Shown here: piece after piece, positions 3,485-36,841 of the stretch | Layout of the letters: each line of letters starts with the position of its first letter | How positions within the stretch are numbered: the first letter of the stretch is position 1 | Assembly: GCF_003334335.1 (NCBI RefSeq) | Contig: NZ_QOWQ01000011.1 | Length of the DNA: 64,000 nt | From: Escherichia coli | GTDB lineage: Bacteria > Pseudomonadota > Gammaproteobacteria > Enterobacterales > Enterobacteriaceae | Reading direction: 5' to 3' (one strand) | Notes under the pieces: model-generated | Seen by the model: only the letters and a program-made list of their open reading frames with translations | Told to the model about the DNA's origin: nothing | Database searches by the model: none | Made by a program: the position numbers and the translations under genes

Positions 3485-4162
3485 TCAGATCTCCGACCAT
3501 TCCCGCAGCAGATTATGATAAAGATTAAGCAGCGACAGGATCTCTTCACTTTCGCCGTAGCGGCTTTTCAGCGACTGAATATTGTTGTCCAGTTCAAACA
3601 GCATGGCGCGCTTTTTATCATCGCGGATCATCGACTGGATCCACATAAATGATGCCACTCGTACGCCGCGGGTTACGGGTGTCACGCAATGCAGGCTGCT
3701 GGAGGGATACAACACGAGATCGCCTGCCGGGAGTTTTACCCGATGTTGTCCGAAGGTGTCATTAACGACCAGTTCGCCGCCGTCGTAGCTTTGTGGATCG
3801 CTTAAAAACAGCGTGGCAGAAAGGTCAGTACGCATCCAGCCGTTTTGTGGATGGCTGCGTACTGCGCCATCCACATGGAAACCATAGGTTTCATTGTTCT
3901 GATAGCGATTAAACAGCGGCGTGGAAAGGGTACGCGGCAAGGCCGCGGCAAAGAATAAAGCATGTTGGTTAACCGCGTTCAGCACCTCATTTTGCAGGGC
4001 GGCGTATAACGTGCTGCGGGTGTCGACCTGTTGATTGTTCTTAACTTGCGCACCTTGTGCGCCGGTGGTGACGCGTCCATCCACCCATTCGGCTTGTTCC
4101 AGTTGTTCGCGAAAACGAGCGACGTCCTGTGGCGATAACACGCCGGGAATGTGGTACATCAT
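3485..4162 (-). CDS. ybiX: PKHD-type Fe(II)/2-oxoglutarate-dependent hydroxylase
   Basis: ORF-track start (4198) trimmed to [10 protein letters not shown] at 4162; HxD motif (GFHVDG); lies 41 nt downstream of fiu on the same strand. Confidence 0.9.
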
Positions 4163-31522: not shown

Positions 31523-32488
31523 ATGGGCAAAGCAGTCATTGCAATTCATGGTGGCGCAGGTGCAATTAGCCGCGCGCAGATGAGTCTGCAACAGGAATTA
31601 CGCTACATCGAGGCGTTGTCTGCCATTGTTGAAACCGGGCAGAAAATGCTGGAAGCGGGCGAAAGTGCGCTGGATGTGGTGACGGAAGCGGTGCGTCTGC
31701 TGGAAGAGTGTCCACTGTTTAACGCCGGAATTGGCGCTGTCTTTACGCGTGATGAAACCCATGAACTGGACGCCTGTGTGATGGATGGTAACACCCTGAA
31801 AGCCGGTGCGGTGGCGGGCGTTAGTCATCTGCGTAATCCGGTTCTTGCCGCCCGGCTGGTGATGGAGCAAAGCCCGCATGTGATGATGATTGGCGAAGGG
31901 GCAGAAAATTTTGCGTTTGCTCGTGGCATGGAGCGCGTCTCGCCGGAGATTTTCTCCACGCCTTTGCGTTATGAACAACTACTGGCAGCGCGCAAGGAAG
32001 GGGCAACCGTCCTCGACCATAGCGGTGCGCCACTGGATGAAAAACAGAAAATGGGCACCGTGGGGGCCGTGGCGTTGGATTTAGACGGCAATTTGGCGGC
32101 AGCCACGTCCACAGGCGGAATGACCAATAAATTACCCGGACGAGTTGGCGATAGTCCCTTAGTGGGTGCCGGATGCTACGCCAATAACGCCAGTGTGGCG
32201 GTTTCTTGTACCGGCACGGGCGAAGTCTTCATCCGCGCGCTGGCGGCATATGACATCGCCGCGTTAATGGATTACGGCGGATTAAGTCTCGCGGAAGCCT
32301 GCGAGCGGGTAGTAATGGAAAAACTCCCTGCGCTTGGCGGTAGCGGTGGCTTAATCGCTATCGACCATGAAGGGAATGTCGCGCTACCGTTTAACACCGA
32401 AGGAATGTATCGCGCCTGGGGCTACGCAGGCGATACGCCAACCACCGGTATCTACCGTGAAAAAGGGGACACCGTTGCCACACAGTGA
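31523..32488 (+). CDS. iaaA: Isoaspartyl dipeptidase / L-asparaginase (Ntn hydrolase)
   Basis: 321 aa; autoproteolytic site region GTVGAVALD. Confidence 0.94.
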
Positions 32489-34346
32489 TGAACTTGATGC
32501 CGGTAATGTGCTGGCGGTTGAAAATCTGAATATTGCCTTTATGCAGGACCAGCAGAAAATAGCTGCGGTCCGCAATCTCTCTTTTAGTCTGCAACGCGGT
32601 GAGACGCTGGCAATTGTTGGCGAATCCGGCTCCGGTAAGTCAGTGACTGCGTTGGCATTGATGCGCCTGTTGGAACAGGCGGGCGGTTTAGTACAGTGCG
32701 ATAAAATGCTGTTGCAGCGGCGCAGTCGCGAAGTGATTGAACTTAGCGAGCAGAACGCTGCACAAATGCGCCATGTTCGCGGTGCGGATATGGCGATGAT
32801 ATTTCAGGAGCCGATGACATCGCTGAACCCGGTATTTACTGTGGGTGAACAGATTGCCGAATCAATTCGTCTGCATCAGAACGCCAGTCGTGAAGAAGCG
32901 ATGGTCGAGGCGAAGCGGATGCTGGATCAGGTACGCATTCCTGAGGCACAAACCATTCTTTCACGTTATCCGCATCAACTCTCTGGCGGGATGCGCCAGC
33001 GAGTGATGATTGCGATGGCGCTGTCATGCCGCCCGGCGGTGCTGATTGCCGATGAGCCAACCACCGCGCTGGATGTCACTATTCAGGCGCAGATCCTGCA
33101 ATTAATCAAAGTATTGCAAAAAGAGATGTCGATGGGCGTTATCTTTATCACTCACGATATGGGCGTGGTGGCAGAGATTGCCGATCGGGTACTGGTGATG
33201 TATCAGGGCGAGGCGGTGGAAACGGGTACCGTCGAACAGATTTTTCATGCACCGCAACATCCTTACACCCGTGCGCTGTTAGCTGCTGTTCCGCAACTTG
33301 GTGCGATGAAAGGGTTAGATTATCCCCGACGTTTCCCGTTGATATCGCTTGAACATCCAGCGAAACAGGCCCCCCCCATCGAGCAGAAAACGGTGGTGGA
33401 TGGCGAACCTGTTTTACGAGTGCGTAATCTTGTCACCCGTTTCCCTTTGCGCAGCGGTTTGTTGAATCGCGTAACGCGGGAAGTGCATGCCGTTGAGAAA
33501 GTCAGTTTTGATCTCTGGCCTGGCGAAACGCTATCGCTGGTGGGCGAGTCTGGCAGCGGTAAATCCACTACCGGGCGGGCGTTGCTGCGCCTGGTCGAAT
33601 CGCAGGGCGGCGAAATTATCTTTAACGGTCAGCGAATCGATACCTTGTCACCCGGCAAACTTCAGGCATTACGCCGGGATATTCAGTTTATTTTTCAGGA
33701 CCCTTACGCTTCGCTGGACCCACGTCAGACCATCGGTGATTCGATTATCGAACCGCTGCGTGTACACGGTTTATTGCCAGGTAAAGACGCGGCTGCACGC
33801 GTTGCGTGGTTGCTGGAGCGCGTGGGCCTGTTACCTGAACATGCCTGGCGTTACCCGCATGAGTTTTCCGGCGGTCAGCGCCAGCGCATCTGCATTGCTC
33901 GCGCGTTGGCATTGAATCCAAAAGTGATCATTGCCGACGAAGCCGTTTCGGCGCTGGATGTTTCTATTCGCGGGCAGATTATCAACTTGTTGCTCGATCT
34001 CCAGCGTGATTTCGGCATTGCGTATCTGTTTATCTCCCACGATATGGCGGTGGTAGAGCGGATTAGTCATCGTGTGGCGGTGATGTATCTCGGGCAAATT
34101 GTTGAAATTGGTCCACGGCGCGCGGTCTTCGAAAACCCGCAGCATCCTTATACGCGTAAATTACTGGCGGCAGTTCCGGTCGCTGAACCGTCCCGACAAC
34201 GACCGCAGCGTGTACTGCTGTCGGACGATCTTCCCAGCAATATTCATCTGCGTGGCGAAGAGGTGGCAGCCGTCTCGTTGCAATGCGTCGGGCCGGGGCA
34301 TTACGTCGCACAACCACAATCAGAATACGCATTCATGCGTAGATAA
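32475..34346 (+). CDS. gsiA: Glutathione/peptide ABC importer ATP-binding protein (dual ABC domain)
   Basis: ORF-track start rejected; TTG at 32475 gives [12 protein letters not shown]... (623 aa); two Walker A motifs GESGSGKS; overlaps iaaA end by 14 nt. Confidence 0.88.
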
Positions 34347-34365: not shown

Positions 34366-35903
34366 ATGGCAAGAGCTGTACACCGTAGTGGGTTAGTGGC
34401 GCTGGGCATTGCGACAGCGTTGATGGCATCTTGTGCATTCGCTGCCAAAGATGTGGTGGTGGCGGTAGGATCGAATTTCACCACGCTCGATCCGTATGAC
34501 GCAAATGACACGTTATCTCAGCCGTAGCGAAATCGTTTTACCAGGGGCTGTTCGGTCTGGATAAAGAGATGAAACTGAAAAACGTGCTGGCGGAGAGTTA
34601 TACCGTTTCCGATGACGGCATTACTTACACCGTGAAATTGCGGGAAGGCATTAAATTCCAGGATGGCACCGATTTCAACGCCGCGGCGGTGAAAGCGAAT
34701 CTGGACCGGGCCAGCGATCCGGCGAATCATCTTAAACGCTATAACCTGTATAAGAATATTGCTAAAACGGAAGCGATCGATCCGACAACGGTAAAGATTA
34801 CCCTCAAACAGCCGTTCTCAGCGTTTATTAATATTCTTGCCCATCCGGCGACCGCGATGATTTCACCGGCAGCGCTGGAAAAATATGGCAAGGAGATTGG
34901 TTTTTATCCGGTGGGAACCGGACCGTATGAACTGGATACCTGGAATCAGACCGATTTTGTGAAGGTGAAAAAATTCGCGGGTTACTGGCAGCCAGGATTG
35001 CCCAAACTGGACAGCATAACCTGGCGTCCGGTGGCGGATAACAACACCCGCGCGGCAATGCTGCAAACCGGTGAAGCGCAGTTTGCTTTCCCCATTCCTT
35101 ACGAGCAGGCCACACTGCTGGAGAAAAACAAAAATATCGAGTTGATGGCCAGTCCGTCAATTATGCAGCGTTATATCAGTATGAACGTGACGCAAAAGCC
35201 GTTCGATAACCCGAAGGTCCGTGAGGCGCTGAATTACGCCATTAACCGTCCGGCGCTGGTGAAAGTTGCCTTTGCGGGCTATGCAACGCCAGCTACTGGT
35301 GTGGTACCGCCAAGTATCGCCTACGCGCAAAGTTATAAACCGTGGCCTTACGATCCAGTGAAAGCGCGCGAATTACTGAAAGAGGCGGGATATCCCAACG
35401 GTTTCAGTACCACGCTGTGGTCGTCACATAACCACAGCACCGCGCAGAAAGTGCTGCAATTTACCCAGCAGCAGTTAGCGCAGGTCGGGATTAAAGCCCA
35501 GGTGACTGCGATGGATGCCGGACAGCGGGCGGCAGAAGTTGAAGGTAAAGGGCAAAAAGAGAGCGGCGTGCGGATGTTCTACACTGGCTGGTCGGCTTCA
35601 ACCGGCGAAGCGGACTGGGCACTATCGCCGCTGTTTGCCTCGCAGAACTGGCCACCGACGCTGTTTAATACCGCGTTTTACAGCAATAAACAGGTGGATG
35701 ACTTCCTGGCTCAGGCACTGAAAACTAATGATCCGGCGGAAAAGACCCGCTTATATAAGGCGGCGCAGGATATCATCTGGCAAGAATCGCCGTGGATCCC
35801 GCTGGTGGTAGAAAAACTGGTGTCGGCACACAGTAAAAACCTGACCGGTTTTTGGATCATGCCAGACACCGGCTTCAGCTTTGAAGACGCGGATTTGCAA
35901 TAA
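34366..35903 (+). pseudogene. gsiB: Periplasmic substrate-binding protein GsiB (family-5 SBP), frameshifted
   Basis: ATG 34366 with RBS gives signal peptide + 53 aa then TAG at 34525; the rest ([20 protein letters not shown]... to 35903) continues in the +2 frame; frame 3 has no start between the stop at 34506-34508 and ATG 34569. Confidence 0.8.
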
Positions 35904-35920: not shown

Positions 35921-36841
35921 ATGCTTAATTACGTTATCAAACGATTACTGGGGTTGATTCCGACGCTGTTTATCGTCTCGGTGCTGGTGTTTTTATTTGT
36001 CCATATGCTGCCCGGCGATCCGGCGCGATTGATTGCCGGGCCCGAAGCTGATGCGCAGGTTATAGAACTGGTGCGTCAGCAGCTGGGGTTGGATCAGCCG
36101 CTGTATCACCAGTTCTGGCACTATATCAGCAATGCTGTGCAGGGGGATTTTGGCCTGTCGATGGTGTCGCGTCGTCCGGTTGCCGATGAGATTGCCAGCC
36201 GCTTTATGCCAACGCTGTGGCTGACCATAACCAGTATGGTCTGGGCGGTTATATTTGGTATGGCGGCGGGAATTATCGCCGCCGTCTGGCGTAACCGTTG
36301 GCCGGATCGATTGAGTATGACCATTGCGGTGTCGGGGATCTCGTTTCCGGCATTTGCTCTGGGGATGCTTTTAATTCAGGTATTCTCCGTTGAACTGGGC
36401 TGGCTGCCTACCGTGGGAGCAGACAGTTGGCAGCACTACATTTTACCCTCCCTGACGCTCGGCGCGGCAGTGGCCGCCGTGATGGCGCGCTTTACCCGCG
36501 CGTCGTTTGTCGATGTTTTAAGCGAAGATTATATGCGTACCGCGAGGGCGAAAGGGGTGAGCGAAACCTGGGTTGTCCTCAAACACGGGCTACGTAACGC
36601 GATGATCCCGGTAGTGACCATGATGGGCTTACAGTTTGGCTTTTTGCTCGGTGGTTCCATCGTTGTGGAGAAAGTTTTCAACTGGCCGGGACTTGGACGC
36701 TTACTCGTTGACTCCGTAGAAATGCGTGATTACCCGGTGATTCAGGCGGAAATTCTGCTTTTCTCGCTGGAATTTATTCTTATCAACTTAGTGGTGGATG
36801 TGCTTTACGCCGCCATTAACCCGGCTATCAGGTACAAGTAA
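35921..36841 (+). CDS. gsiC: Glutathione/peptide ABC importer permease
   Basis: 306 aa; DppB-like permease. Confidence 0.95.

Follow-up and report, generated by a model that had tools for sequence, protein, structure and literature searches.

In the present study, we conclude with high confidence that gsiA of Escherichia coli is translated from the UUG codon at position 32475 through an ordinary, strong Shine-Dalgarno (SD) sequence, and that its overlap with the upstream gene iaaA is a derived state which arose by loss of the iaaA stop codon. The window, by which we mean the whole stretch of 64,000 nucleotides that was analysed, carries the two genes as co-directional neighbours, and all features given below lie on its plus strand. 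The iaaA gene, coding for an isoaspartyl/beta-aspartyl peptidase of 321 amino acids, occupies 31523..32488 according to the ORF list and to RefSeq, which annotates the identical sequence in K-12, and its stop codon TGA is read directly at 32486-32488. The gsiA gene, coding for a fused double ABC ATPase of 623 amino acids, occupies 32475..34346, as given by the open reading frame and the NCBIfam equivalog NF007613, and its start codon TTG lies at 32475..32477. The initial annotation had placed the start of gsiA at this TTG, with the N-terminus MPHSDELD, and the RefSeq annotation, a peak of initiating ribosomes in vivo and the comparison of 19 Enterobacteriaceae all agree with it. Its overlap of 14 nt with iaaA is likewise exact on direct reading (32475..32488): the 3' end of the iaaA frame is GAA AAA GGG GAC ACC GTT GCC ACA CAG TGA, and the gsiA frame from 32475 is TTG CCA CAC AGT GAT GAA CTT GAT, that is M-P-H-S-D-E-L-D. 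The shared nucleotides correspond to gsiA codons 1-4 plus 2 nt and to iaaA codons 318-321 plus the stop, so the distance from the iaaA stop to the gsiA start is -14 nt and termination takes place 11 nt from the UUG.

Both the TTG start and its overlap of 14 nt with iaaA are already known and are standard E. coli annotation. RefSeq starts gsiA at the TTG with the same overlap in all three E. coli genomes that were checked, two of which are identical to the window at the junction and the third of which was the most divergent match (96.7%). The RefSeq coordinates in K-12 BW25113 are equivalent to 31523-32488 for iaaA and 32475-34346 for gsiA, and the K-12 gene (b0829, formerly yliA; U00096.3, start 867520) has the same start, the same 623-aa product and the same overlap. 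Furthermore, of 5,426 complete E. coli genomes, at least 5,130 matched the 61-nt junction (32445-32505) without a difference over the stretch that aligned. Compared with the K-12 record, the operon in the window differs only away from the junction, by one substitution in IaaA and a frameshift in gsiB.

The reading frame itself leaves a limited number of starts to be considered. In E. coli the gsiA frame is open upstream as far as a TAA at 32352, and between this stop and the Walker A motif the other in-frame candidates are ATG 32367, ATG 32376, GTG 32457, GTG 32508 and ATG 32541. The initial annotation had stated that no ATG gives a plausible N-terminus for GsiA, and this holds, because the upstream ATGs have no SD sequence and ATG 32541 cuts into the first beta-strand; the two in-frame GTGs were left out there, and one of them, GTG 32508, is the start of the 2006 GenBank record. 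Full-length GsiA scores 1375 bits with the equivalog model NF007613 for GsiA, the ATP-binding protein of the glutathione ABC transporter, whose curated cutoff is 1077, and positions 1-623 of the model correspond to residues 37-659 of the longest ORF, which is the protein from the TTG; since the model was itself built from annotated proteins, this agreement is in part circular. The solved DppD and OppD homologues begin 4-5 residues before the motif VLAVENL and align from their own residues 4-5 to GsiA residues 9-13. Located 6 nt upstream of the TTG, within iaaA codons 314-316, is the SD sequence AAGGGG at 32463..32468, which was identified by the energy of its duplex with the anti-SD. This duplex reaches -7.8 kcal/mol at a spacing of 5, a value that only 1.7-2.9% of 3,000 random window positions attain, and the SD site at the TTG is thus more than chance. 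The SD energies of the rival starts are all -3.0 kcal/mol or weaker.

Experimental mapping of starts bears directly on this codon. Nakahigashi et al in 2016 used tetracycline-inhibited ribosome profiling (TetRP) to re-map UUG and GUG starts, and in their Table S2 (row 8) yliA (gsiA) has a new initiation site at -33 nt, a TTG (PMC4909307). In their three samples the signal was 46.3/140.5/70.6 at the TTG against 0/0/2.98 at the 2006 GTG start; the site is that of the 2014 GenBank re-annotation. It is not one of those that were verified with lacZ fusions (status '6. nt'), and no N-terminal peptide is given for it (PMC4909307). The TetRP signal is placed on the first base of the P-site codon and is therefore 8 nt from the position of iaaA termination. 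The initial annotation had named initiation profiling and N-terminal proteomics as checks on this start. In the profiling, the TetRP peak is present in vivo at this codon, and Ribo-RET gives 0 reads there, in a data set that detects only about 18% of annotated starts. INRI-seq, an in vitro method that detects 70% of annotated starts, also gave 0 reads at the gsiA site in all five replicates, with a fragment that comprised 150 nt of the ORF and the 30 nt before it. Among the TRAINSPOTTER entries listed, where the N-terminus of IaaA appears, there is no N-terminal peptide of GsiA.

The comparison across species was made by a scan for IaaA with one genome per species, which yielded 80 loci, among them 19 from Enterobacteriaceae with alignable junctions. 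In these 19, codon 1 of gsiA is always an initiator (TTG in 11, GTG in 5 and ATG in 3), and other Leu, Val or Met-neighbour codons do not occur there. TTG is found in Escherichia, Citrobacter and one Enterobacter; GTG in Enterobacter, Lelliottia and Kluyvera; and ATG in Leclercia, Cedecea and Enterobacter sp. Ag1. The SD sequence stands at the same place in 19/19, with energies from -7.4 to -12.6 kcal/mol. Downstream of codon 1, codons 2-8 encode P-H-S-x-E-L-D in all 19 species with synonymous changes (CCA/CCG, CAC/CAT, AGT/AGC/TCC, GAA/GAG, CTT/CTG/CTC/CTA/TTG and GAT/GAC), so that conservation of the coding type sets in at the start, and a conserved upstream ORF is absent. In addition, eight genomes of five genera have in-frame stops just upstream of the gsiA start, 4-5 codons before it in Enterobacter, Lelliottia, Cedecea and Mixta and farther upstream in Kluyvera, and a conserved N-terminal extension is therefore excluded.

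Two other main starts have to be weighed against the TTG. Initiation at GTG 32508..32510 would give a GsiA of 612 amino acids that does not overlap iaaA. This GTG stood as the annotated start until the 2014 record, and the N-terminus that it gives falls short of the solved DppD/OppD homologues by just 3-4 residues. However, TetRP leaves it nearly empty next to values of 46-140 at the TTG, its SD energy is -2.3 kcal/mol, and the 11 codons 5' of it evolve like coding DNA, with P-H-S-x-E-L-D kept and the changes synonymous. The codon itself, number 12 of gsiA, reads GTA or GTT in 8 of the 19 Enterobacteriaceae, and the old GTG is for this reason an internal valine (Val12). This start is already largely refuted, and we regard it as very improbable. 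An upstream start at ATG 32367, ATG 32376 or GTG 32457, which would lead to a GsiA of 629-659 amino acids and a deep overlap with iaaA, is more improbable still. In its favour are the gsiA frame, open to the TAA at 32352 in E. coli, and the recurrence of ATG 32367 in Escherichia and Citrobacter; the latter codon lies within the conserved IaaA sequence IDHEGN (GAC CAT GAA), which would by itself be enough to preserve an ATG. These upstream codons have no usable SD (+0.2 to -3.0 kcal/mol), and the extension is covered neither by the GsiA family model nor by the solved homologues. Moreover, GTG 32457 is specific to E. coli, being GCG in other Escherichia and GGG in Citrobacter, and the in-frame stops that precede the conserved start in Enterobacter, Lelliottia, Kluyvera, Cedecea and Mixta also stand against an upstream start. 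ATG 32367 and ATG 32376 were rejected as they add 33-36 residues encoded inside iaaA, without an SD or a counterpart in the homologues. ATG 32541 was rejected too, since it would remove the first beta-strand of the nucleotide-binding domain, to which DppD and OppD align.

With the start at the TTG, the origin of the overlap can be read from the C-terminus of IaaA in relatives, where the stop positions were set by walking the frame from the start of the alignment. The C-terminus GIY(R/K)E, with TAA as the stop, is shared by Leclercia, Enterobacter, Lelliottia, Kluyvera and Enterobacter sp. 10-1; the end GIYRE with its stop is found in seven relatives, in contrast to the longer end of Escherichia and Citrobacter. 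Mangrovibacter IaaA ends at the homologous place with GIWQE, and short ends are likewise present in Mixta, Cedecea and Enterobacter sp. Bisph1. In the relatives with GIY(R/K)E the TAA abuts the SD sequence (GAA TAA GGGGG), and gsiA starts 10-13 nt past the stop. Escherichia and Citrobacter have AAA in place of this stop (iaaA codon 314, Lys, 32462..32464; placed by the junction alignment and the IaaA C-termini), and IaaA runs on for 8 residues as KGDTVATQ until its frame meets the next stop, a TGA within gsiA codons 4-5. The ancestral iaaA would thus have ended with GIYRE-TAA just before the SD, 10-13 nt 5' of the gsiA start, and a single change of TAA to AAA in the lineage of Escherichia and Citrobacter would have removed the stop. 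The polarity of this change rests on parsimony over the sampled species, with Salmonella and Klebsiella absent from the loci. Through such a stop loss the intercistronic ribosome-binding site would have become coding DNA, while the SD, the spacing and the start were left unaltered. As the ancestral stop was lost, the 14-nt overlap is a lineage-specific by-product, and the simplest reading of the alignments is that it is derived and was not built for coupling. The 8-residue tail of IaaA is probably constrained by the initiation signals of gsiA and not by the function of IaaA. The proposed ancestral layout has a known counterpart in the E. coli gene pairs spaced by +9 to +12 nt with the SD in the spacer, a class of 203 pairs that its authors read as showing mostly independent, SD-driven initiation (PMC10666635). 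The present E. coli junction differs from this class in that iaaA has lost its stop and the spacer is now part of the iaaA coding sequence; the ribosome-binding site is unchanged.

The initial annotation had taken the overlap to imply translational coupling of gsiA to iaaA. This does not follow, as the overlap is a by-product of stop loss and its -14 nt fall outside the range of -8 to +6 nt that the authors of reinitiation tests in E. coli take to allow efficient coupling. UUG is a weak initiator, and since termination of iaaA occurs only 11 nt from it, some coupling of the two genes is plausible from the arrangement of the junction. Initiation on gsiA would be directed mainly by the SD, and ribosomes that end iaaA 11 nt downstream may add a coupled component, perhaps an appreciable one, either because the site is kept unfolded or by local reinitiation; the weak UUG probably holds the output of GsiA below that of IaaA. 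A tighter form of coupling, in which ribosomes end at the TGA (32486-32488), back up by 11 nt and reinitiate at the UUG, seems to us unlikely, and the same doubt attaches to its consequence that the output of GsiA would follow that of IaaA.

Several features of the locus nevertheless speak for tight coupling. The stop and the start are 11 nt apart with the SD inside iaaA, the initiator is the weak UUG, and the isolated gsiA fragment gave no INRI-seq reads as against the TetRP peak in vivo. Of 23 Enterobacterales loci, 22 also have a tight junction, from -17 to +13 nt, and in 11 betaproteobacterial loci an in-frame ATG forms ATGA with the iaaA stop. On the other hand, termination-reinitiation in E. 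coli drops steeply with distance: the authors of the tests regard -8 to +6 nt as the permissive range, longer overlaps lie outside the tests, and hardly any coupling was left once the gap reached about 20 nt (PMC10666635). The SD, the spacer and the start are the same as in relatives whose genes stand 10-13 nt apart, and a strong, conserved SD suggests de novo initiation. As for the empty INRI-seq site, the method misses 30% of annotated starts anyway. In a kasugamycin translatome obtained with polysome microarrays, iaaA is classed as 'resistant' with a KEV above 2, whereas gsiA has a KEV of 0.73 (p = 0.27); according to a review, coupled downstream genes tend towards more kasugamycin resistance than other genes, and the unlike response of the two genes is weak and indirect evidence against tight coupling. 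A hairpin at 32443-32504 encloses the SD, the TTG and the iaaA stop, but its z of -1.1 (28 of 200 shuffles fold as well) and its arms, which cannot pair in Citrobacter or E. albertii, count against a role, and coupling through the unfolding of this RNA was rejected. In the previous studies of coupled pairs of the ATGA and TGATG types by Huber et al (2019, 2023; PMC6728339, PMC10666635), the genes are likewise co-directional neighbours with the SD in the upstream ORF, and the downstream start adjoins the upstream stop, as it does at iaaA-gsiA. The E. coli junction differs from these pairs in its overlap of 14 nt in place of 4 or 1 and in its UUG start, and the ATGA form does occur at several iaaA-gsiA junctions of Betaproteobacteria. 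We consider it somewhat less likely again that, after the stop loss, translation of gsiA became substantially dependent on iaaA through backward reinitiation over 14 nt. If it did, the relatives and E. coli would offer a natural before-and-after pair for the evolution of coupling, and backward reinitiation would fix the ratio of IaaA to GsiA for a shared substrate pathway.

Leaving aside how translation is started, the neighbourhood of the two genes is widely kept. Right after iaaA stands a gsiA orthologue (64-94% identity) in 75 of the 80 species loci; the linked loci belong to Gammaproteobacteria, to many Betaproteobacteria and to one Brucella, and contig ends cut two of the other five. In the literature, gsiABCD has been described as 'entirely operonic' with iaaA encoded alongside (PMC10355420), and in a paper of 2023 that deals with gsi, iaaA still figures as 'an ORF of unknown function'. 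The conserved order of the genes is strong evidence for an iaaA-gsi operon partnership, and the link between IaaA and the Gsi importer would be ancient and in some way functional. IaaA is an isoaspartyl (beta-aspartyl) dipeptidase/asparaginase. Gsi was reportedly characterised as a glutathione importer by Suzuki et al in 2005, and Parry and Clark in 2002 are said to have linked ybiK/iaaA to CysB control and glutathione use. Of the idea in the initial annotation that Gsi imports peptides processed by IaaA, the genomic association is the part that is supported, and an import of IaaA substrates does not follow from it; our literature search found no paper tying GsiB to isoaspartyl peptides.

The TTG start of gsiA matters little past correct annotation, for it has been in the K-12 record since the 2014 GenBank version (U00096.3). 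A modest addition of this analysis is that the overlap can be explained by a lineage-specific loss of the iaaA stop and not by a design for coupling. Another is the adjacency of iaaA and gsiA in 75 of the 80 sampled proteobacterial species, which bears on the role of IaaA and Gsi. Neither the origin by stop loss nor this linkage would surprise a specialist.

Finally, the window is K-12-like, and over its first 50 kb it differs from BW25113 by six substitutions and one deletion. The deletion removes one G of gsiB at about 34520-34522, where other E. coli have CTCAGGCCGTAG and the window has CTCAGCCGTAG. This frameshift of 1 nt cuts GsiB off after 53 residues, and it is absent from all 5,409 complete E. 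coli genomes that gave a match to the region. The source strain may have a true inactivating mutation here, or the sequence may be in error. In iaaA, a difference at 31961 changes serine 147 of K-12 IaaA to proline (S147P) in the window.

In gsiB (34366-35903), one G is missing at 34520-34522 of the window, so that CTCAGGCCGTAG of other E. coli reads CTCAGCCGTAG. This 1-nt deletion shifts the reading frame, which runs into a stop at 34525-34527, right after ...TLSQP, and the remainder of GsiB is legible from 34569 in a different frame. Among the 5,409 complete E. coli genomes matching the stretch, none carries the deletion, and the best match reached 98.4% with one gap. If the deletion is real, GsiB, which binds glutathione for the Gsi importer, would be inactivated in the source strain; otherwise, the missing base is an error of the sequence rather than a mutation.

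Comparison with K-12 BW25113 over the first 50 kb of the window showed that 3 of the 7 differences are located in the 6.2 kb of the iaaA-gsi operon. Codon 147 of iaaA (31961) is CCT (Pro) in the window versus TCT (Ser) in BW25113, giving IaaA S147P, and the RefSeq IaaA protein of strain T159A is identical to that of BW25113. The other two are the gsiB deletion and a synonymous substitution at 35944 in gsiC. Elsewhere, substitutions were found in the dps-rhtA intergenic region (13910), in ybiU (22856, synonymous, and 23842, A59T) and in ybiW (27012, E184K), each of them a transition (C/T or G/A).

At the junction of iaaA (31523-32488) and gsiA, an imperfect inverted repeat, ACCGGTATC ... GATGCCGGT, spans 32443-32504 and could form a hairpin holding the gsiA Shine-Dalgarno sequence, the TTG start (32475-32477) and the iaaA stop. 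The stability of this potential hairpin did not exceed that of shuffled sequence (z = -1.1), and the structure lacked conservation in E. albertii and Citrobacter.

In the INRI-seq supplement (in-vitro initiation profiling), alternative peaks are reported at an in-frame ATT at iaaA +15 (10.8 CPM; window about 31537, K-12 866582) and at an out-of-frame ATT at gsiD +8 (157 CPM; window about 36852, K-12 871897). Lange et al. (2017) listed iaaA, with a 5' UTR of 32 nt per RegulonDB, among 137 kasugamycin-'resistant' transcripts (response value, KEV, above 2.0), and the values for gsiA (0.73) and gsiB (0.79) were average.

Among the 80 iaaA loci, taken from one genome per species, 11 from Betaproteobacteria (L026, L030, L035, L046, L054, L058, L062, L063, L068, L072 and L078; iaaA stop region at about 3940-3990) have ATGA at the iaaA stop, formed from an in-frame candidate ATG of the gsiA frame. 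With these putative gsiA starts, the junctions resemble the classic 4-nt coupling arrangement, unlike the loci of Achromobacter, Bordetella, Collimonas and Paraburkholderia, where gaps of 20-130 nt separate iaaA from the putative gsiA start.
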